Under the pieces are notes generated by a model that had not been told where the DNA came from, did not search any database, and was given only the letters and a program-made list of their open reading frames with translations. A program made the translations under genes and the position numbers. Positions 31,771-39,810 of a stretch of DNA of 64,000 nt are shown here, piece after piece. Position 1 is the first letter of the stretch; every line of letters starts with the position of its first letter. The DNA is from Vicinamibacterales bacterium. Its GTDB lineage: Bacteria; Acidobacteriota; Vicinamibacteria; Vicinamibacterales; CAVVIG01. The stretch spans positions 331,739-395,738 of the forward strand of contig JBFWPN010000005.1 in NCBI GenBank assembly GCA_050249955.1, in the 5' to 3' direction.

Positions 31771-32417
31771 CGTGCCTTCACGGTAATCGAGACGCCCTCG
31801 CCCGAGGGGGTCACGATCGAGGTGAACATCCGCGGGTCGGTCCTGATCGCCTGCAGGAAGTCGGTCATCTCGCTCTGCTTGTTCACCACGTTGTGCGCCA
31901 GGAACAGGCCGCGCGGCTTCAGGCGTGGGAACACCATGTCGAGGAACCGCTTGTAGTCCCGCTTCCAGGCGTCGAGGAACACGAAGTCGAACTCACCCTG
32001 CAGCTTCGGGATTTCCCTGAACGCATCGCCCGACACCACGGTGACAACGTCGGAGAGGCCGGCCCTCCGGATGTTCTCCGCGGCCACCTTCGCACGCGCC
32101 GGATCGTACTCGATGGTCGTGAGTCGACCGCCGGTCTGTCGCAGGCCGAGCCCGATCCAGATGGCGGAGTAGCCGTTCGCGCCGCCAATCTCGAGGGCGC
32201 GGGTCGCGCCGCTCGACGCCACCATCACGCGCAGGAAGCGGCCATCTTCTTCAGACACCGCGAGCAGGTCGGTGTCGGCCGCCTTGATCTGCTGCATCAG
32301 CTTCTGCAGGTCGGCCGGAATGGTGGACGTGGCGCCCTGCTGCGCGCGAAGCGGGGCGACGAGCAGCGCGCAACTCAGTACCAGCGCTAGGAAACGGGCG
32401 ATGCGAGCCATTCGCAT
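31767..32417 (-). CDS. Class I SAM-dependent O-methyltransferase (family 3, caffeoyl-CoA OMT-like) with a signal peptide
   Basis: MRMARIARFLALVLSCALLVAPLRAQ, then ALEIGGANGYSAIWIG, TIEYDPARAKVAAENI and FDFVFLDAWKRDY. Confidence 0.8.
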   Translation of the reverse strand: MRMARIARFLALVLSCALLVAPLRAQQGATSTIPADLQKLMQQIKAADTDLLAVSEEDGRFLRVMVASSGATRALEIGGANGYSAIWIGLGLRQTGGRLTTIEYDPARAKVAAENIRRAGLSDVVTVVSGDAFREIPKLQGEFDFVFLDAWKRDYKRFLDMVFPRLKPRGLFLAHNVVNKQSEMTDFLQAIRTDPRMFTSIVTPSGEGVSITVKAR

Positions 32418-33775
32418 ACCTTCCGGGCAGTGGCGCGGGCATCCGCGACGCAGTCGGGCACACCCACGCCGCGGAAACCACTGCCGGTGACATACAGGCC
32501 GGGGTGATGGCCAAGTTCGCGATCGATGGCGGCCACCCGATCCAGGTGGCCGACCTCGTGCTGGGCGTTGGCGTTCTCCCAGCGATACACCCGGGTGAAG
32601 ATCGGCGCGCCGCTGATGCCGATGAGCGGTCCCATCGCGTTCAGCGCCGTCTGCACCAGCTCGGCGTCGGTCTTCTCCAGTGCCCGCGGGTCGCGTGCGC
32701 CGCCGAAGAACGCCCGCAGCAGCACTTTGCCCTCAGGCGCACGCCCCGGCCATTTGGACGAGAGCCAGGTGCCGGCCATGATGCCGGTCGCCTCGACCCG
32801 TGGCACCACCCACCCCGAGCCGTTCAGCGGGTCGGCGATTTGCGCGCGGTCGAAGGCGAGCGCAACGGTGGCCGCCGAGGCATACGGCACGTCGCCGCAC
32901 GTGCGGGCAATCGCCGGAGCCACCGTCTGGAGCGTGCGTGCCGCCACGAAGGCCGGGGTGGCCGACACCACCGCACTGGCGCGTATCCGCTCGCCTGTAC
33001 TGGTCTCCACCACGTAGCCTTCCGCGTCGCGCCCCACAGACGTGACGGGGGTGCGCAGCCTGACGGCCGCGGCGGGCAGCAGCCGTTCAAGCGCGGCGAC
33101 CATCTCGCCCAGCCCGCCGGGCAGCGACTTGAACGCGCCGTCCTTCGACGGGGGCATCGGGTGCGTGCGGAAGTGGCGGAGCAGGCTGCCCGACTGTTGT
33201 TCGTAGGTGACGAAGCGCGGGAACAGCGCGCGGACCGAGAGGCGCTCGACATCGCCCGCATGGATCCCCGCAAGTAGCGGTTCCGCGAGGTACTCGACCG
33301 CCTCGCTCCCGAACCGCCGCCGCATGAAGCTGCCGATCGACTCGTCCGAGTCGTCGGTCCGCTTCGGCACGAACAGTTCCATGCCCATGCGCAGCTTCCC
33401 GGGCCAGGAGAAGAGCCCGGTCCTGATGAACGGCCCCCACTCCGTAGGGATGCCCATCACCGACCCGGCTGGCAGGGGATGCAGCCGTCCACCTCGCTGA
33501 ATGTAGGCGAGCCGGGGCAGGCGCGTGGTTACCAGTCGATCGCCGAGCCCCAGTTCGGTGCACAGCTTGATCGCGTCCGGCTTCTGGATCAGCAGCGCGT
33601 CAGGCCCGCCGTCGACATGGAATCCGTCGACTTCCTCACTGAAGACAACCCCGCCGACCCGCGAGGATGCCTCCAGCAGCGTGAATGGAACCGTCCGTTG
33701 TTGCAGTTCGTATGCGGTCGCCAGGCCGGCGATGCCGCCGCCGAGGATGACGACGTGGGGAGCGGGAAGACTCAC
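32387..33775 (-). CDS. hemY: Protoporphyrinogen/coproporphyrinogen III oxidase (HemY-type, FAD-dependent)
   Basis: GTG 33775 gives VSLPAPHVVILGGGIAGLATAYEL (FAD GxGxxG). About 462 aa. C-terminal GLYVTGSGFRGVGVPDCV. The longer track ORF start overlaps hemH. Confidence 0.85.
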   Translation of the reverse strand: MSLPAPHVVILGGGIAGLATAYELQQRTVPFTLLEASSRVGGVVFSEEVDGFHVDGGPDALLIQKPDAIKLCTELGLGDRLVTTRLPRLAYIQRGGRLHPLPAGSVMGIPTEWGPFIRTGLFSWPGKLRMGMELFVPKRTDDSDESIGSFMRRRFGSEAVEYLAEPLLAGIHAGDVERLSVRALFPRFVTYEQQSGSLLRHFRTHPMPPSKDGAFKSLPGGLGEMVAALERLLPAAAVRLRTPVTSVGRDAEGYVVETSTGERIRASAVVSATPAFVAARTLQTVAPAIARTCGDVPYASAATVALAFDRAQIADPLNGSGWVVPRVEATGIMAGTWLSSKWPGRAPEGKVLLRAFFGGARDPRALEKTDAELVQTALNAMGPLIGISGAPIFTRVYRWENANAQHEVGHLDRVAAIDRELGHHPGLYVTGSGFRGVGVPDCVADARATARKVCEWLASPVS

Positions 33776-33782
33776 CCCGCGA

Positions 33783-34655
33783 TCATAGCCGTTCGCGGAC
33801 CAGCGATTCGAGCAGGTCGATGAAGGCGGGCGAGTCGTTGAGCGACACGGTCCGTCGCAGCGGCACCCCAAGCTCGCGCGCCACGCCAGCCGCCTGCAGG
33901 TCGATGTCGAACAGGATCTCGGTGTGGTCGCACACGAAGCCGATCGGTACGACGAGGAAGGCGCGGATTCCCATGCGGACGCGGTGACGCAGGAACTCGC
34001 CGAGGTCGAGCCCCATCCAGGGCTCGGCCGTGCGGCCGGCGCTCTGGAACGCGCGGTGATAGCGGGCGACCCCCGCCCGGGCGGCCACGGCCCGCGCCGT
34101 GGCGGCTACCTCGGCGGCGTATCGATCGCCTTCGCGAATCACGCGGGTGGGCAGGCTGTGCGCGGTGAACACGACGTCTTCGTCAGGCTGTGGCGCCGCC
34201 TCGCGAATCCGAGCGGCAAAGGCCTCCGCCAGGAGCGGATGCTCGTGGAATGAAGCCACGCGCACCAGCTCGACGCCGTCGGGCAAGCCAGCCTCTGCCG
34301 CCTGGAAGTACTTGGCCACGCTCAAGGTGGAGAACTGCGGCGCCAGCGGGATGGCGATGATGCGGGTGACGCCGGTCTGGACGAGGTGAGCGACGGCGTC
34401 GCCGAGGTAGGGCTTCCAGTTCCGCATGCCCACCACCACCGGGATCCGGGGGCCGAGACGGGCGTGGAGGGCGGCCCCCTGGGCGAAGGTCAGCTCGGTC
34501 AGCGGTGAGCGACCGCCGATGGCCTCGTAGTTGTGCCGCATCTCCGCGATGAGCTCGGGGGACGGCGCTCGTCCCCCGCGGACCCGCGTCAGGTACTCCG
34601 GCATCTCGTCCAGCGAGGACGGGGTGCCGTGTGCCATCAGCAGGACGCCCGTCAT
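33783..34655 (-). CDS. hemH: Ferrochelatase
   Basis: ATG 34655 gives MTGVLLMAHGTPSSLDEMPEYL...; FTAHSLP; VVPIGFVCDHTEILFDID. ATGA overlap with the hemE stop. Confidence 0.85.
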   Translation of the reverse strand: MTGVLLMAHGTPSSLDEMPEYLTRVRGGRAPSPELIAEMRHNYEAIGGRSPLTELTFAQGAALHARLGPRIPVVVGMRNWKPYLGDAVAHLVQTGVTRIIAIPLAPQFSTLSVAKYFQAAEAGLPDGVELVRVASFHEHPLLAEAFAARIREAAPQPDEDVVFTAHSLPTRVIREGDRYAAEVAATARAVAARAGVARYHRAFQSAGRTAEPWMGLDLGEFLRHRVRMGIRAFLVVPIGFVCDHTEILFDIDLQAAGVARELGVPLRRTVSLNDSPAFIDLLESLVRERL

Positions 34656-35692
34656 CGCGCCGTGCGTTCGTGGACGTACTCGGCGACCGCCTGGACGTGC
34701 TCGAGCGGCGTCGGCGGCAGGATGCCGTGCCCCAGGTTGAAGATGTGGCCCGGACGTCCGCCCGCCCTGGCCAGCACATCGTCTACGCCGGCCAGGAGCC
34801 GGTGGAGCGGACCGAGCAGCAGCGTCGGGTCGAGGTTGCCCTGGATGGCGCGGTCGTGACCGATGCGGTCCCACGCCTCGTCCAGCGGCGTGCGCCAGTC
34901 GGCGCCGATGACGTCGCCTCCGGCCTCCCGCATCTCGGCCAGGATCGACCAGGTGCCAACCCCGAAGTGGATGGTGGGGACGTCGGTCGCTGCCGTCACG
35001 ATCTCGAAGATGCGCTTCGTGTGGGGCAGGATGAACTCACGGTAGTCGGCGGCGTTCAGGGCGCCCACCCACGAGTCGAAGACCTGGACGCAGTCCACAC
35101 CGGCTTCCACCTGGGCCACGAGGTACTGCCCGATCTGTTCGGCGAAGTGCGCACAGAGCTTGTGCCACGACTCGGGATGGCCGTACATGATCGCCTTCGT
35201 CTTGGCGAAGTTGTTGGAGTGGCCGCCCTCGATGGCGTAGGAGGCGAGGGTGAACGGCGCGCCGGCAAAGCCGATCAAGGGAATGCGCCCTCCCAGCTCG
35301 ACCTGAATCTGCTTGATGGCCTGAAGGACGTGGCCGAGCGACTCGCGCGATTCGAAGGGGCGGAGCCGGTCGATATCGGCATCCCCCTCGATGGGGTTCT
35401 CGATCTGCGGTCCCTCGCCTTTCACGAAGTCGAACCGGATACCCATCGGCTCGAGCGGCAGGAGGAGGTCCGAGAAGAGGATGGCTGCGTCGACGTCGAT
35501 GGCCTGAACCGGTTGCATGGTCACTTCGGTGGCCAGGTCCGGGATCCGGCAGAGGTCCAGCAGGCTATAGCGCTGCCGCAGTTCCCGATAGACCGCCATA
35601 TATCGGCCGGCCTGACGCATGAACCAGATGGGAGTGGCGTCGACCGGCTGTCGCCGGCAGGCGCGGATGAAGCGGAAGTCTTCGCGTGTCAG
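34652..35692 (-). CDS. hemE: Uroporphyrinogen decarboxylase; the 5' end is probably a CTG start at 35692 rather than the ATG at 35620
   Basis: MRQAGRYM..., ILFSDLLLP, IGFAGAPFTLASY and FNLGHGI are HemE blocks. In-frame upstream codons read LTREDFRFIRACRRQPVDATPIWF, the conserved HemE N-terminus. There is no ATG/GTG/TTG before the in-frame stop at 35783-35785. Confidence 0.85.
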   Translation of the reverse strand: MTREDFRFIRACRRQPVDATPIWFMRQAGRYMAVYRELRQRYSLLDLCRIPDLATEVTMQPVQAIDVDAAILFSDLLLPLEPMGIRFDFVKGEGPQIENPIEGDADIDRLRPFESRESLGHVLQAIKQIQVELGGRIPLIGFAGAPFTLASYAIEGGHSNNFAKTKAIMYGHPESWHKLCAHFAEQIGQYLVAQVEAGVDCVQVFDSWVGALNAADYREFILPHTKRIFEIVTAATDVPTIHFGVGTWSILAEMREAGGDVIGADWRTPLDEAWDRIGHDRAIQGNLDPTLLLGPLHRLLAGVDDVLARAGGRPGHIFNLGHGILPPTPLEHVQAVAEYVHERTAR

Positions 35693-36084
35693 GGTGTCAC
35701 CTTGAGAAGGGTCCGGGCCAGCGAGACGAGGTCGTCCAGCCAGAGCGGCTTGAACTTGAGTTCGGCACCGAGGGCCTGCAGTTCACCTGAGACCTGCTCG
35801 TCCAGAAAGTAGTCGCCGGTGACGATGGCCACCGGTGTGTGGTCGAGCCCCCTGGTGGCGCGGAGCTGCCGGAGGAAACCAAGACCGTCGACCAGGGGCA
35901 TCCGGAGGTCCAGGATGATGGCGTCCGGACGGTGTTCCAGGGCCTCTGCCAACCCGGCCCGTGCGTCCACGGCCGTCCTGACGGTAAACCCTTCCATCCT
36001 CAGCATCCGGGCAAAGGTCTGAGTAACCGCCTCGTCATCGTCCACAATCAGGATGGACGCGGGGGCGTTCCCGGGGAGCGACAT
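35689..36084 (-). CDS. Single-domain CheY-like response regulator receiver
   Basis: 131 aa. ILIVDDDEAV...DAIILDLRMPLVDG...PVAIVTGD...KP, receiver domain only. Confidence 0.85.
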   Translation of the reverse strand: MSLPGNAPASILIVDDDEAVTQTFARMLRMEGFTVRTAVDARAGLAEALEHRPDAIILDLRMPLVDGLGFLRQLRATRGLDHTPVAIVTGDYFLDEQVSGELQALGAELKFKPLWLDDLVSLARTLLKVTP

Positions 36085-36137
36085 TGGCGGTCATTGTAAC
36101 CGACGACATGGCGGACATTGCGAAGCCAGCCCAAGAG

Positions 36138-36166
36138 CTTGACAACTCCGTGTTACACTTCGGAGT
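36138..36166 (+). promoter_or_regulatory. TTGACA hexamer (36138-36143) overlapping a 7-bp inverted repeat AACTCCG-N10-CGGAGTT (36143-36166) upstream of gene 36204
   Basis: Read directly. I found no clean -10 at canonical spacing, so promoter status is uncertain. Confidence 0.25.
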
Positions 36167-36203
36167 TTCCTACCGTCAGTATCCAAATCCTTGGAGGCGC
36201 TAG

Positions 36204-36881
36204 GTGAGCCCGATTCTGGTGCGGCCTGTCCGCGAACAACTCGAGCACGACCGCATTATCCGAATGCTGCACGGCAAGAGCCGGCGCAAGTACGACGCCG
36301 GCATGAACCCTGGTGCCGAGCAGAATGCTCCAGTTGGTTCCGGTCCAGCGACGCTGTACCCCGACGTTGTCCTCCATTCAGCCGAGCGGGGGCGACGGCT
36401 GGAGGTGGTCATCGAGGTCGAGACCGGGGAGTCGGTCAACCACCTGGAGGCGCTGGCGCAGTGGACCCACCTGTCGAAGCTGCGGGCGGCATTTCACCTT
36501 TACGTGCCGTCGCACATGGTCGACGTGGCGCGCCGCCTCTGCGAGGACAACCACATCGTCGTCCACGAGGTCTGGGCCTATCACGGCATCGGCGATGACA
36601 TCCGCTTTGCCCTGATCCACAAGTCCAAGGAAGTGCCGGTGCTGGGGCCGCCTACGCGGCGGGCCGATGAGCCTCCGGCGAAGGTGGCGAAGAAGAAGGT
36701 GGCTGCGACCGCACCCGCACGCCGCCCTGCGGCGGTGAAAAAGAAGGCGGCGCCCGCGCCGAAGCGGGCGGTGGCCAAGAAGCGTCCGACCGCCCCTGCC
36801 AAGAAGAAGACGGCTCCGCCCCGGCGCAAGGCCGCACCGGTGAAGAAGAAGGCTGCCGCCAGGCCCACGAAGCGTAAGTAG
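36204..36881 (+). CDS. Hypothetical protein: PD-(D/E)xK (Uma2/restriction-endonuclease-like) core with a histone-H1/AlgP-like Lys/Ala/Pro-rich C-terminal tail
   Basis: GGAGG lies 6 nt upstream of GTG 36204. LYPDVVLHS...RLEVVIEVETGES resembles the PD...EVxS/T nuclease-fold motif. The last ~68 aa are AKKK/KKKAAP/PAKKK repeats. Confidence 0.6.
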   Translation: MSPILVRPVREQLEHDRIIRMLHGKSRRKYDAGMNPGAEQNAPVGSGPATLYPDVVLHSAERGRRLEVVIEVETGESVNHLEALAQWTHLSKLRAAFHLYVPSHMVDVARRLCEDNHIVVHEVWAYHGIGDDIRFALIHKSKEVPVLGPPTRRADEPPAKVAKKKVAATAPARRPAAVKKKAAPAPKRAVAKKRPTAPAKKKTAPPRRKAAPVKKKAAARPTKRK

Positions 36882-36883
36882 GC

Positions 36884-37525
36884 GTGCCAGCGGTCCGCTT
36901 TTCCCGCGACAAGCGGGGTTACGAATACGTCTACCTGGTGCACACGCCCATGCGGCGGGGCAAGCCCGGCCGCACGCGGGTGCTGTACTGGTATCGCACT
37001 CCTCCAGGGATCCGCATCGGACGGTCGCCGTTCGATGCAGATGTTCAGAAGCTCCTCGAACAGCAGCACCCCGGCGTCACCTTCGACTGGGACACCATCA
37101 TCAACACGCCGATGCCACCTCCGGACATGACGGAGTACTGGCGCGAGCGGCGGCGGGCGGAGAAGGCGGCCAAGCAGGAACGGCGGGCGATGGAGGCCGA
37201 AGAGGCAGCCGAAGCCGCCCGGGCCGCGGTCGCTGCGGCGTCGGGGCCCACGCCCGTGTCGGAGCCGGTCGGGCTGGACGACCCGGCCGATCCCGGCGAG
37301 GCGGCCGAAGCGGAACCGGCGGATCTCGAGGCTGGGGAGGCAGGGGAGGGCGAGACCGCCTCCGCCGCCGGGGAGGGAGACCAGCAGGCCGGCGCCGGCC
37401 CCAGGAAGCGCCGGCGCCGACGGGGTGGCCGACGTCGGCGGACCGCAGAGAGCGGGCAGTCGAAGGAGTCCGGGGAAGACGCGAACCCATCCGAACCGCC
37501 CGATCCGGCGTCTGAAGGGGAGTAA
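36884..37525 (+). CDS. Hypothetical protein: ~85-aa globular N-domain, acidic Ala/Glu-rich disordered region and an Arg-run (RKRRRRRGGRRRR)
   Basis: GTG 36884 lies 2 nt after the previous stop. VPAVRFSRDKRGYEYVYLVHTPMRRGKPGRTRVLYWYRTPPGIRIGRSPF... No family recognised. GC3 is consistent with coding. Confidence 0.55.
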   Translation: MPAVRFSRDKRGYEYVYLVHTPMRRGKPGRTRVLYWYRTPPGIRIGRSPFDADVQKLLEQQHPGVTFDWDTIINTPMPPPDMTEYWRERRRAEKAAKQERRAMEAEEAAEAARAAVAAASGPTPVSEPVGLDDPADPGEAAEAEPADLEAGEAGEGETASAAGEGDQQAGAGPRKRRRRRGGRRRRTAESGQSKESGEDANPSEPPDPASEGE

Positions 37526-37559
37526 CCCCGCCATCAAGGCGTGGCATAATCCAACACCT

Positions 37560-38879
37560 ATGGCTCTGAAAAAGAATGGGTTCTGGCCCTCGGCCTTCGT
37601 GGTGCTCCTGGCCGCCGGCCTGTCCGCGCAGGCGCCATCCCGCCCGGCGTCGAATCAGGAACAGACACCGACCTTCAGAGTGCAGATTGATGCCGTCACG
37701 ATGGACGTCATCGTGAAGGACTCGCAGGGCCGCTTCGTGCCCGACCTGAAGAAGGACGAGTTCGAGATCTACGAAGATGGCGTGAAGCAGGACATCACGT
37801 CGATGACGCTCAGCCACGGCGGACGCGTCTCGAACCTGCTCGAGGCACCGCCACCGCCGCCGCCCGAGGGCATCATCCTGCCGCCCGTCCGCAAGGTGCA
37901 GGACACGTCTGGGCGCATCTTCCTCTTCTTCGTCGACGACCTCCACATGCAGTTCCAGAACACCGGGCGCGTGCGCGAGCTGTTCAAGAAGATCGGCCGG
38001 AACCTCATTCACGACGGCGACCTCTTCGGGATCGTCTCGAGCGGCCCCTCGTCAATCTCGATCGACATGACCTACGACCGGCGCCGGCTGGACGAGGCCA
38101 TCAACAAGATGACCGGCGGCGGGCTGAAGCCGAGCGAGATCATCAACCAGGGCAATGGCAGCAGCGGTCCGACCGAGCTGCGGTACCAGGCGCACGTGGC
38201 CTTCTCGACCATGTCGGAGGCGCTCGACAACCTCGAGAAGGTGACCAACCGCCGGAAGGCGCTGATCTGGGTGAGTGAAGGGTACGACTTCAACCCGTTC
38301 CAGGATTCGCGCCTGGGCCTTCGCTCCGCAGACTCGCCGTTCCTCCAGAACCAGTCGAACGTGATGATGAACAACGTCGACAACGGCGATGGCACCAGCA
38401 CCAACCGGCCGGATTCGATGGTGCGCCAGCAGCAGCAGAACGAGACGTTCAGCGACGCGGAACTGGCGTTCGAGCTGGGCGAGATCACCCGGTCGGCGAA
38501 CCGGGCGAATACCACCATCTACACCATCGACCCTCGCGGGCTGGTGGCCGGCTCGGACATCGACGAGCAGGTCGATCCGTCGGAGTGGGGTGCCTACGTG
38601 CGCAAGTCGCAGGACAGCCTGCGCGTGCTGGCCGAGGAGACGGGCGGCCTTGCCGTCGTCAACATGAACGACTTCGACAAGGCGCTGAAGAACATCGACG
38701 CCGCGAGCAGCGATTACTACGTCCTCGGCTACTACTCGAACAACCCGGATCCGACGCGTCGCCGTCGAAAGCTCGAGGTGAAGCTGACCCGCAAGGGGCT
38801 GGATGTGTACTCGCGCAAGGAGTACGTGCTGCGCGCGCCTAAGCCCTCCGCGCCGAGCGCGGCACCGAAACAGCCCTAG
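37560..38879 (+). CDS. Secreted VWA-domain protein (resembles the Acidobacterial VWFA-related family)
   Basis: ATG 37560. Signal peptide MALKKNGFWPSAFVVLLAAGLSAQA. FRVQIDAVTMDVIVKDSQGRFVPDLKKDEFEIYEDGVKQ, IFLFFVDDLH, TIYTIDPRGL and SDYYVLGYY match my recollection of that family. Confidence 0.75.
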   Translation: MALKKNGFWPSAFVVLLAAGLSAQAPSRPASNQEQTPTFRVQIDAVTMDVIVKDSQGRFVPDLKKDEFEIYEDGVKQDITSMTLSHGGRVSNLLEAPPPPPPEGIILPPVRKVQDTSGRIFLFFVDDLHMQFQNTGRVRELFKKIGRNLIHDGDLFGIVSSGPSSISIDMTYDRRRLDEAINKMTGGGLKPSEIINQGNGSSGPTELRYQAHVAFSTMSEALDNLEKVTNRRKALIWVSEGYDFNPFQDSRLGLRSADSPFLQNQSNVMMNNVDNGDGTSTNRPDSMVRQQQQNETFSDAELAFELGEITRSANRANTTIYTIDPRGLVAGSDIDEQVDPSEWGAYVRKSQDSLRVLAEETGGLAVVNMNDFDKALKNIDAASSDYYVLGYYSNNPDPTRRRRKLEVKLTRKGLDVYSRKEYVLRAPKPSAPSAAPKQP

Positions 38880-39810
38880 GCCGCGTCCGTTCGGCCTTCG
38901 CCATCCGCGCCACACCCCGGCCGGGCAGGGTGAGGGGAGCCGCTGCAGCTGCGGCGGCCGCCTCCATCCGTCCGGCTGCCTCGCTCAGGTAGAACTCATC
39001 GATGTCCGAGCCGATGAAGTTCACCCCCAGCCTCGCGCACGCCACCGCCGTGCTGCCCAGCCCCGTGAACGGATCCATCACCGTCTCGACGTTCGTGAGC
39101 CCGTGCAGGCGGATGCACTGTTCGGGCAGGCGGGCCGGGAACGTCGCCGGGTGCGGCCGGTCCTTGTCGCGCCGCTGGATCGTCTCGTAGGGAATGAACC
39201 ACGTGTTGCCGCGGCAGCGCACGCCCTCTGCACCCGCGCGCCAGCGGGCAATGTTCGACTGGTCCTGGTACGGCACGCCGAGGGCGAGCCGGTCGAGCCG
39301 CGTGGCGCCCTGGTGCGTGAAGTGGAAGATGAACTCGTGGCAATCGTTCAGGTAGCGCTCGCTGTTGATCGGCTTGTAATGGCCGACGGCGATGTCGCGG
39401 TCGATCCCTGAGGCCGCGCTGGTCAGCTCTCGGTCGATGGCGACCGACTTCACCCAGTGGATGATGTTCTGCAGCCGCAGGTGCGGGCGGGCGGCCTGCG
39501 CCACATCCAGGGCTGTCCACGGATCGGACGGCCGCGTGCCCACGTTGAGGAAGAGCGAACCTTCCGGCTTCAGGACGCGCGCCGCGCCTGCCACCCACGC
39601 CGACGTCCACTGCAGGTACTCGTCCTGATTGAGCGTGTCCTGGTAGGTGTTGTAGCGGATCCCCATGTTGTAGGGCGGCGACGTGACGATGACGTCGACG
39701 CTCGACGCGTCCATGGTGCTGAAGACGTCCAGGCAGTCTGCCAGGAAGAAGCGTCCCTCGGTGTTGCCCTTCGTACGTACGACTTTGTGTGGGTTCACGG
39801 TGATGCCCAT
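38839..39810 (-). CDS. Beta-class N4-cytosine/N6-adenine DNA methyltransferase (PF01555-like), apparently orphan
   Basis: Motif IV SPPY (VDVIVTSPPYN) is N-terminal and motif I (MDPFTGLGSTAVACARLG) C-terminal, which is the beta-class order. HPATFPARLPEQCIRL. The poly-Ala tail overlaps the convergent VWA gene end by 41 nt. Confidence 0.85.
   Translation of the reverse strand: MGITVNPHKVVRTKGNTEGRFFLADCLDVFSTMDASSVDVIVTSPPYNMGIRYNTYQDTLNQDEYLQWTSAWVAGAARVLKPEGSLFLNVGTRPSDPWTALDVAQAARPHLRLQNIIHWVKSVAIDRELTSAASGIDRDIAVGHYKPINSERYLNDCHEFIFHFTHQGATRLDRLALGVPYQDQSNIARWRAGAEGVRCRGNTWFIPYETIQRRDKDRPHPATFPARLPEQCIRLHGLTNVETVMDPFTGLGSTAVACARLGVNFIGSDIDEFYLSEAAGRMEAAAAAAAAPLTLPGRGVARMAKAERTRPRAVSVPRSARRA

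Follow-up and report, generated by a model that had tools for sequence, protein, structure and literature searches.

A gene pair of the Vicinamibacteria that joins a histone-H1-like tail to a conserved head and an adjacent partner protein

What does a bacterium do with a protein that ends in a tail like that of histone H1, and why is the gene for that protein followed so closely by a gene for a second, similarly unclassified one? The question is raised by two genes, here called P1 and P2, in a 64,000-nucleotide stretch of DNA from a Vicinamibacterales bacterium (contig JBFWPN010000005.1 of GenBank assembly GCA_050249955.1; hereafter, the window). A first-pass annotation of the window had described P1 as a nuclease-fold protein with a Lys/Ala/Pro tail and P2 as its charge-complementary partner. 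Our analysis points to a module that appears to be confined to the class Vicinamibacteria and to occur in nearly all of its members. In the reading that we tentatively favor, and which we consider possible if a little short of probable, P1 would be tethered to DNA and would carry a metal-binding head that cuts or recognizes nucleic acid, with P2 acting as its modulator.

Both genes were found, with the sequences described for them, at the positions given in the first-pass annotation (Table 1), and reading of the junction (AAG CGT AAG TAG gc GTG CCA) bore out a gap of 2 nt. Since the G+C content of the window is ~68%, long open reading frames (ORFs) turn up in any frame, one example being a 318-aa antisense ORF (36581..37537, minus strand) that spans the P1 tail and the whole of P2. 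The G+C content at codon position 3 was 0.82 for P1 and 0.81 for P2 (neighboring genes, 0.82 to 0.90); together with a conserved Shine-Dalgarno sequence and start and with homologues of P1 and P2 at the protein level, which number in the hundreds to thousands, this identifies the two plus-strand frames as genuine coding genes. The antisense ORF is a shadow of the kind that high-G+C DNA produces: its third-position G+C content (0.78) is lower than in the sense frames, and the homologues of P1 and P2 at the protein level favor the plus strand.

For P1 and P2 alike, the closest homologues were encoded by metagenome-assembled genomes (MAGs) of Vicinamibacterales. A query with the P1 head (aa 1 to 156) retrieved no fewer than 7,953 clusters (90% identity), of which the best 120 were 73 to 99% identical and, without exception, annotated as "hypothetical." A HMMER search of 1.84 billion representatives yielded 626 P1 clusters at 50% identity, of which 137 had E values of ≤1e-30, and at least 472 stretches of GTDB species genomes encode a confirmed P1 relative. 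Ten of the most distant clusters listed (45 to 50% identity) were, where named, assigned to Vicinamibacteraceae, Vicinamibacterales or Acidobacteriota, a Luteitalea MAG carries the locus as well, and no plasmid homologue was found. The P1 family is therefore class-wide in Vicinamibacteria and, among the matches listed, appears to be restricted to that class.

Some public records bear labels from elsewhere. Four MAG records titled "Bifidobacterium..." (L002, L006, L025 and L038), one titled "Betaproteobacteria" (L022) and one titled "Actinomycetes" (L073) nevertheless contain the full Vicinamibacterales locus, and records labeled "Terriglobia" (L061) and "Acidobacteriaceae" (L062) likewise carry the complete Vicinamibacterales array from hemE through a response regulator gene, P1 and P2 to the downstream VWFA gene. 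With P1 heads 66 to 79% identical to that of the window, these records are almost certainly mislabeled or contain mis-binned contigs. A separate artifact is seen in a 442-aa protein (P0390) that begins as P1 and contains the VLYWFRTPPGVKVGREPFDEEV of P2, a chimera produced by a frameshift across the neighboring genes, and in two long-read assemblies (L161 and L162) in which P1, the VWFA gene and the methyltransferase gene were called as fragments. Such assembly errors inflate and distort the P1 and P2 families in public protein sets.

Across 80 GTDB species loci, the gene order was hemY-hemH-hemE-response regulator (minus strand), P1-P2-VWFA (plus strand) and N6/N4 methyltransferase (minus strand). 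P2 lay directly 3' of P1 in 78 of these loci, and the two exceptions end at contig edges. A profile of distant heads recruited a further 80 metagenome contigs, with P1 heads 50 to 73% identical to that of the window, and here P2 followed P1 in 39 of the 41 loci having >900 nt of downstream sequence; a search begun from P2 on long contigs returned the same locus. From the P1 stop to the P2 start, the median distance was 3 nt (interquartile range, 2 to 10 nt). The tight linkage noted in the first-pass annotation thus holds almost without exception in these sets. The VWFA gene follows P1/P2 in 72 of the 80 species loci, its ATG in the window being located 34 nt after the P2 stop, and no plus-strand terminator-like site was found from P1 to the end of the VWFA gene. 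On the basis of the short gaps, the position of the VWFA gene and the lack of a terminator-like site, P1, P2 and VWFA probably form one operon, and P1 and P2 are probably translationally coupled. If so, P1 and P2 would be cotranscribed, with P2 being made in step (stoichiometrically) with P1.

The tail of P1 is its most conspicuous feature. Its 80 aa comprise 22 Ala, 19 Lys, 14 Pro and 10 Arg residues (81% A/K/P/R), corresponding to a net charge of +27 and an isoelectric point (pI) of 12. Lys averages 1% in the window, and among the stop-free stretches of 80 aa in its six frames, this is the only one with at least 10 Lys residues. No tandem repeat was found in the underlying DNA; the stretch is compositionally biased instead. 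A basic, K/R/A/P-rich tail of 37 to 280 aa was present in every full-length P1 relative examined, with acidic residues typically making up <7% and KRK, KRR or KKK as the usual terminus, and the net charge of the tail ranged from +11 to +41 (median, +19) over 68 loci. The tails of 2 of 91 relatives matched Pfam family HC2 (PF07382; the Chlamydia H1-like nucleoprotein) with an E value of 4e-10, whereas a Pfam scan of the window protein itself gave no match to HC2 or Hc1; these matches reflect composition and not common descent. The H1-like character that the first-pass annotation assigned to the tail was therefore confirmed in composition and extends to the whole family.

Tails of this kind bind DNA in HupB (PMC5676037) and DdbA (PMC3643593), and a CarD analogue from Anaeromyxobacter contains a DNA-binding H1-like domain that is able to replace an HMGA domain (PMC2919716). 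Read by eye, the sequences of P1 and P2 show no hydrophobic, signal-like segment at the start, whereas that of the VWFA protein does. P1 would thus be a cytoplasmic polyanion binder, most likely of DNA, in which the disordered tail would provide non-specific, histone-H1-like DNA affinity and anchor the protein on the chromosome; DNA binding is here inferred from composition.

Polyanions other than DNA deserve consideration as well. AlgP, which has a comparable K/A/P-rich tail, sits at polyphosphate granules (PMC9239181), no specific DNA-binding fold was detected in P1 or P2, and both proteins are predicted to be disordered over ~35 to 55% of their length, with oppositely charged blocks. The P1 tail and the mixed-charge disorder of P2 might therefore target polyphosphate granules or drive phase separation. 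We regard this explanation as distinctly unlikely, given that the conserved neighborhood contains no ppk, ppx or CHAD genes and that granule tethering alone would leave a conserved head with invariant acids unexplained.

That head (net charge, -1; pI, 6.8) is extremely conserved. Its identity to the window protein had a median of 71% over the 80 species, and because this is comparable to the same-species medians of the haem enzymes encoded nearby (hemE, 76%; hemH, 67%; hemY, 63%; the methyltransferase reached 70%), the head is under housekeeping-level constraint. An alignment of 91 diverse representatives, with pairwise identities down to ~40%, contained 12 invariant residues (I4, R7, E11, Q12, H15, D54, E71, E73, E82, W87, L99 and P102), and a further set was conserved in at least 90% of sequences (P8, R10, E14, D16, R17, N35, G37, P53, V72 and T74 and, further along, E76, S77, N79, L81, A83, F97, R111, E122 and W124). 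The motif LYPDVVLHS...LEVVIEVETGES, which the first-pass annotation had singled out, is present and covers some of the most conserved positions of the family, and all four candidate active-site acids (E11, D54, E71 and E73) belong to the invariant set.

Do these residues make P1 a nuclease, as initially proposed? In the AlphaFold2 (AF2) model, the mean predicted local distance difference test (pLDDT) score was 58.9, with residues 70 to 145 scoring 73 to 90, residues 1 to 62 (including D54) scoring 40 to 59 and the tail disordered; the poor model at residues 1 to 62 is probably due to the alignment used, which consisted of sequences ≥62% identical. The predicted elements were a helix at residues 10 to 29, bridges at 57-58 and 65-66, a strand at 69 to 73, a helix at 78 to 91, a strand at 96 to 102, a helix at 103 to 115 and two strands at 120 to 129 and 132 to 140. 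This places E11, Q12 and H15 on the first helix; P53-D54 opens a strand, and E71-V-E73 closes the strand after it, beyond which come a helix and another strand. The order and spacing of the elements plausibly match a minimal PD-(D/E)xK core. The acidic triad of that motif is present in all 91 representatives; its Lys position, however, is taken by an invariant Glu (E73), followed by T74. Glu or Gln at the Lys position has precedents in BamHI and BglII.

Profile searches gave faint signals in the same direction. The only fold-related Pfam signals for the P1 family were sub-threshold matches, each in 1 or 2 of 91 members, to HSDR_N (E = 0.019), HSDR_N_2 (E = 0.041) and Tn7_TnsA-like_N (E = 0.054; 14.5 bits versus a cutoff of 26.5; residues 25 to 117 of one member), all three of which belong to the PDDEXK clan. 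These came from Pfam scans of 22 members (E up to 5), 91 members (E up to 1) and 10 diverse members plus a consensus; HMMER filters discard most matches above ~0.1, and the family consensus had zero Pfam matches. For P1, nothing exceeded the threshold in Pfam, NCBIfam or PADLOC, and neither a single-sequence nor a family-profile search of PDB sequences returned anything. Foldseek found nothing significant for the AF2 model (best E values, 0.075 against the PDB and 0.028 against BFVD), and hhalign of the P1 profile against Escherichia coli YraN, a minimal PD-(D/E)xK protein, gave a probability of 0.3%, a weak test in that only one sequence served as the template. We therefore take the three weak matches to one clan and the four invariant acids as a plausible lead only. 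Of the original nuclease-fold claim, the invariant acids and the predicted layout held up, while the replaced Lys, the weak model and the sub-threshold matches spoke against it. A likeness to Uma2 (PF05685), proposed at the same time, found no support in the profile searches: the pattern of that family, PD...E-V-x-[ST] without a Lys, is similar to that of P1, but the window protein had no match at E values of up to 1, and neither did any of the 91 (E ≤ 1) or 22 (E ≤ 5) family members. We file P1 under no named family, since none of the defining domains tested matched the window protein and, of the PD-(D/E)xK motif, the acidic residues were present but the Lys was not, with no profile match above threshold.

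P2 is built differently. The compact N-terminal domain (net charge, +7; pI, 10.1) was modeled with pLDDT scores of ~91 to 95 across most of residues 1 to 70 (75 to 84 in three 10-residue blocks) as strands at residues 3 to 8, 14 to 20 and 32 to 39 and helices at 52 to 61 and 69 to 73, followed by a long helix at 82 to 119. Among 22 invariant columns of the family are R8, D9, G12, E14, R38, P40, P41, G46, R47, F67, D68 and W69, as well as W86, R87, E88, R89 and R90 in the long helix, and the motif RFSRDKRGYEYVYLVH...VLYWYRTPPGIRIGR, quoted in the first-pass annotation, likewise falls among the most conserved positions. Beyond the N-terminal domain, an acidic stretch (residues 96 to 175; net charge, -13) leads to the poly-Arg run RKRRRRRGGRRRR, so that the charge blocks agree with the layout described initially. 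The linker in between differs in sequence and length among species, with 34 to 159 aa separating the WRERR motif from the Arg run, and a run of at least four R/K residues occurs in P2 at 61 of 68 loci. No match above threshold was found for P2 in Pfam, NCBIfam or PADLOC, nor any in PDB sequence searches with a single sequence or a family profile, and no Foldseek match in the PDB fell below an E value of 0.46. A profile search retrieved 581 relatives, of which the 120 listed were small proteins without Pfam domains. P2 thus represents a second orphan family, with an N-terminal domain that, as modeled, has no known structural relative, and the initial impression that neither protein belongs to a characterized family was upheld.

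The arginines of P2 bring RNA into play. According to this alternative, P1 and P2 would be an RNA-binding or RNA-processing pair, in which the head of P1 is an RNA endonuclease or RNA binder and its tail and the Arg motif of P2 bind RNA instead of the chromosome, acting at the ribosome, in a degradosome-like assembly or as RNA chaperones. Arg-rich runs such as that of P2 are typical of RNA-binding motifs, PD-(D/E)xK folds include RNA nucleases, and the housekeeping-level conservation would fit as well. Weak matches of P2 members to RhlB, REV, U1snRNP70_N and Nop53, low-complexity and RNA-related Pfam families, point in the same direction, and the many SSB and PriB OB-folds (E ≥ 1) that dominate the non-significant Foldseek neighbors of P2 may be counted with them. 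All these matches, however, are below threshold and driven by composition, the conserved neighborhood contains no RNA-metabolism genes, no Rfam element lies near the locus, and for H1-like K/A/P tails the best-documented ligand is DNA. We therefore consider an RNA-directed pair unlikely.

Returning to a DNA-tethered P1 with P2 as its modulator, we asked how far the first-pass description of P2 as a charge-complementary partner could be upheld. Over the 68 loci, the median net charge of P2 was +0.5, i.e., the protein is approximately neutral, and its linker (about -9) falls far short of balancing the P1 tail (about +20). Moreover, tail and linker were correlated neither in charge (Spearman's rho = -0.12, P = 0.32) nor in length (rho = 0.10, P = 0.40). 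In addition, a sediment lineage represented by two contigs (L108 and L123) has P1 followed directly by the VWFA gene, with no adjacent P2. P1 of this lineage (L108, 2530..4634, and L123) is complete (221 aa), and its basic tail ends in KKR. In the absence of any charge or length correlation, simple charge matching of P1 and P2 was dropped.

Could P2 instead restrain a nuclease? A nuclease-inhibitor pair resembling a toxin-antitoxin or restriction system would account for the invariant candidate catalytic acids of P1, for a partner gene that lies immediately 3' and encodes an acidic region, taken to mimic DNA, and for the PF01555 methyltransferase gene 1.3 kb downstream in 57 of the 80 species loci, the product of which would protect the host genome. 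Yet PADLOC matched neither protein, the genes are vertically inherited at a single syntenic chromosomal position in more than 100 loci, and P1 heads are 60 to 83% identical across loci, all of which is unlike mobile defense or toxin-antitoxin loci. The acidic stretch is also the part of P2 with the lowest conservation, P1 occurs in one lineage with no P2 next to it, and the methyltransferase gene, which lies past the VWFA gene on the other strand, is lacking in many P1-P2 loci. This explanation is very improbable in our view. In 57 of 80 Vicinamibacterales species, the methyltransferase is found at this syntenic position (57 to 88% identity); it looks like a vertically inherited orphan of the lineage and belongs, like CcrM, to PF01555. 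A restriction-modification reading that includes it was judged unlikely on the grounds of strand, distance, vertical inheritance and the loci that lack it.

The VWFA gene suggests yet another possibility, namely, that the head is a catalytically dead scaffold for dimerization or docking and that the pair serves the exported VWFA protein, for example, by regulating or assembling an envelope structure, with nucleic acid binding being incidental. The motif Lys is indeed absent, the gap between P2 and the VWFA gene is as short as noted above with no terminator-like site, and the P1-VWFA linkage persists where upstream synteny and P2 are lost: in the L108/L123 lineage, the response regulator gene found upstream in 68 of the 80 species loci is absent, and the upstream genes are unrelated ones, namely, a possible S-adenosylmethionine-dependent O-methyltransferase gene (read from its translation) and a gene resembling that of arginase (its counterpart by position in L162 has a PF00491 match). 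On the other hand, P1 and P2 lack the hydrophobic signal-like start that the VWFA protein has, and a tail with a charge of +20 to +40 would be left without an obvious role. TIGR03436 proteins form a large paralogous family in Acidobacteria, so the adjacency of P1 and the VWFA gene may be merely historical. We consider the scaffold explanation, too, to have very little chance of being correct.

We therefore return to the DNA-tethered module, in which the tail would anchor P1 and the conserved 145-aa head would supply the specific activity. Because the invariant residues of the head are laid out like the metal site of PD-(D/E)xK proteins, with Glu in place of Lys, the head most likely binds a divalent metal ion and either cleaves or specifically recognizes nucleic acid. 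The basic beta-sheet domain and the poly-Arg patch of P2 could also bind nucleic acid, while its acidic linker could either fold back onto these basic parts, resulting in autoinhibition, or touch the P1 tail; P2 would, in either case, be a cofactor or modulator of P1. Metal binding or catalysis by the head, contact between P1 and P2 and the role of the linker are all inferred.

Several observations weigh against this proposal. No nuclease or DNA-binding fold matched the head significantly in sequence or in structure, the canonical motif Lys is missing from it, and the AF2 model is poor in the very region that contains D54. K/A/P-rich tails also bind polyphosphate, as AlgP illustrates (PMC9239181), and could bind RNA too. 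Furthermore, tail and linker charges do not covary, and the sediment lineage described above manages without an adjacent P2. Lastly, the entire 8-kb neighborhood is syntenic within the class, which makes adjacency weaker functional evidence than it would be across phyla. A bolder version of the same idea is that P1 and P2 constitute a new bacterial chromatin system, in which P1 is a class-wide housekeeping nucleoid protein with an H1-like tail on an active, Glu-variant PD-(D/E)xK-type head, serving as a nuclease bound to the chromosome or for structure-specific recognition of DNA, and P2, a dedicated partner of novel fold, uses its linker and poly-Arg run to gate the access of P1 to DNA; we find this version doubtful.

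A comparison with known systems shows which parts of this architecture have counterparts. By working principle, the closest is CarD-CarG of Myxococcus and related myxobacteria, which is likewise lineage restricted and in which one protein carries a globular N-terminal domain and a basic tail that binds DNA and is HMGA- or H1-like, always coexisting with the dedicated partner CarG such that the pair acts as one unit (PMC2919716, PMC4374960). The C-terminal domain of CarD consists of an acidic and then a basic stretch, as in P2, although in CarD both segments are located within one protein. P1-P2 differs from it in belonging to another phylum and in having no known link to RNA polymerase; P1 has no match to CarD_CdnL_TRCF (PF02559), and P2 has no family match, no similarity to the zinc-binding CarG and no His/Cys cluster. 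By architecture, HupB/HupS of mycobacteria and Streptomyces come closest, with a small conserved head and a long PAKK/KAAK-type tail that, in HupB, is needed for nucleoid binding and varies in length between species (PMC5676037). Unlike HupB, P1 combines enzyme-like, invariant acids with an obligate partner encoded downstream, and Pfam scans of the P1 family gave no match to Bac_DNA_binding (PF00216), arguing against an HU/IHF core.

By composition, P1 is closest to Hc1/Hc2 of Chlamydia, AlgP of Pseudomonas and DdbA of Streptomyces, which share the K/A/P-rich basic region but lack the P1 head and a P2 partner, with AlgP working at polyphosphate granules (PMC9239181, PMC3643593). The winged helix of eukaryotic linker histones H1/H5 (PF00538) had no match in P1, the head of which is predicted to be alpha/beta instead. 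With minimal PD-(D/E)xK nucleases (of the Hjc, YraN and TnsA/HsdR N-domain type), P1 shares the predicted succession helix(E)...strand(PD)...strand(E-x-[K/E])...helix...strand, a distance of 17 residues from D54 to E71 and a small size of ~145 aa, but it differs in residues outside the classical motif, namely, the additional invariant Q12, H15, E82 and W87 and also E76, S77 and N79, which are conserved in at least 90% of sequences. Among known anti-phage defense and toxin-antitoxin systems, PADLOC found no match, and the position of the locus is fixed in more than 100 loci. An H1-like tail on a globular bacterial domain is thus a known theme, whereas the P1 head, P2 and their obligate pairing are undescribed; literature searches aimed at the P1/P2 family found no paper.

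Table 1. Features of the P1-P2 locus and its surroundings (positions in the window)
Feature	Position	Strand	Details	Basis
P1	36204..36881	+	GTG start; 225 aa	ORF list
P1 head (aa 1-145)	36204..36638	+	Conserved alpha/beta domain; putative PD-(D/E)xK-like arrangement	Invariant columns and AF2
P1 histone-H1-like tail (aa 146-225 and stop)	36639..36881	+	Ends in KRK	Composition, AF2 disorder
P2	36884..37525	+	GTG start; 213 aa	ORF list
P2 basic N-domain (aa 1-95)	36884..37168	+	Three beta strands, two short helices, start of long helix	
P2 long E/R/K-rich helix (aa 82-119, WRERRRAEKAAKQERRAMEAEE...)	37127..37240	+	WRERRR invariant	AF2 pLDDT 81-92
P2 acidic disordered linker (~aa 120-173)	37241..37402	+	Net negative	pLDDT mostly 43-57, <50 from ~residue 146
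P2 poly-Arg run RKRRRRRGGRRRR (aa 174-186)	37403..37441	+	Strongly positive	
P2 acidic C-terminal end (aa 187-213 and stop)	37442..37525	+	Variable; net -6 from residue 191	
VWFA gene (acidobact_VWFA)	37560..38879	+	Probable start ATG 37560, MALKKNGFW...; hydrophobic signal-like N-terminus	TIGR03436, E 8e-52
N6/N4 DNA methyltransferase	38839..39810	-	No adjacent restriction gene	PF01555, E 1e-40
Shine-Dalgarno GGAGG	36193..36197	+	6 nt ahead of P1 GTG	TGGAGGCG kept in at least 20 of 22 species
Promoter-like element 5' of P1	36139..36159	+	TTGACA 36139-36144; TG-n-TACACT 36151-36159, extended -10-like	
Single-domain response regulator (CheY-like)	35689..36084	-	Divergent syntenic neighbor	PF00072, E 8e-19
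Haem genes hemY-like (protoporphyrinogen/coproporphyrinogen oxidase), hemH (ferrochelatase), hemE (uroporphyrinogen decarboxylase)	32387..35620	-		

Upstream of P1, an alignment of 22 species revealed a block of conserved DNA (36139..36206) containing, in order, TTGACA, TG-n-TA(C/G)ACT, GGGGTTTGAT, TGGAGGCG and the start codon, which is non-ATG (GTG or TTG) in all 22 species. The promoter-like columns (T82, T90 and flanks) are invariant or nearly so, and the first two elements may act as a promoter. A consensus promoter scanner remained silent on them because the hexamers are only 9 nt apart. Another conserved sequence, TATTGTAACCGAC (36085..36100), is located just upstream of the divergent response regulator gene; read on the minus strand (GGTTACAATA), it contains a -10-like TACAAT ~8 nt before the regulator ATG, suggesting that the transcript of this gene is leaderless or has a very short leader. 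The haem block beyond it is conserved beside the module in most species, with hemH missing from the block in about one-quarter of the loci. Downstream, the mechanically called VWFA ORF starts at a GTG (37425) and shares 101 nt with P2, but the true start is likely the ATG listed in Table 1 (MALKKNGFWPSAFVVLLAAGLSAQ, signal-peptide-like).

The Vicinamibacteria (Acidobacteria subdivision 6) rank with the most abundant bacteria of soil, and their cell biology is nearly uncharted. A gene pair that is present in at least 472 species-level genomes, with a head conserved like a haem-biosynthesis enzyme, is nonetheless unannotated in every library searched. Cultured relatives, such as Luteitalea pratensis and Vicinamibacter silvestris, exist. 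If P1 is a nucleoid protein, it would add a new and possibly enzymatic head to the few bacterial proteins with eukaryote-like H1 tails, along with a dedicated partner with no known structural relative, and the two would represent two new protein families for domain databases and an entry point to chromosome organization in this phylum.

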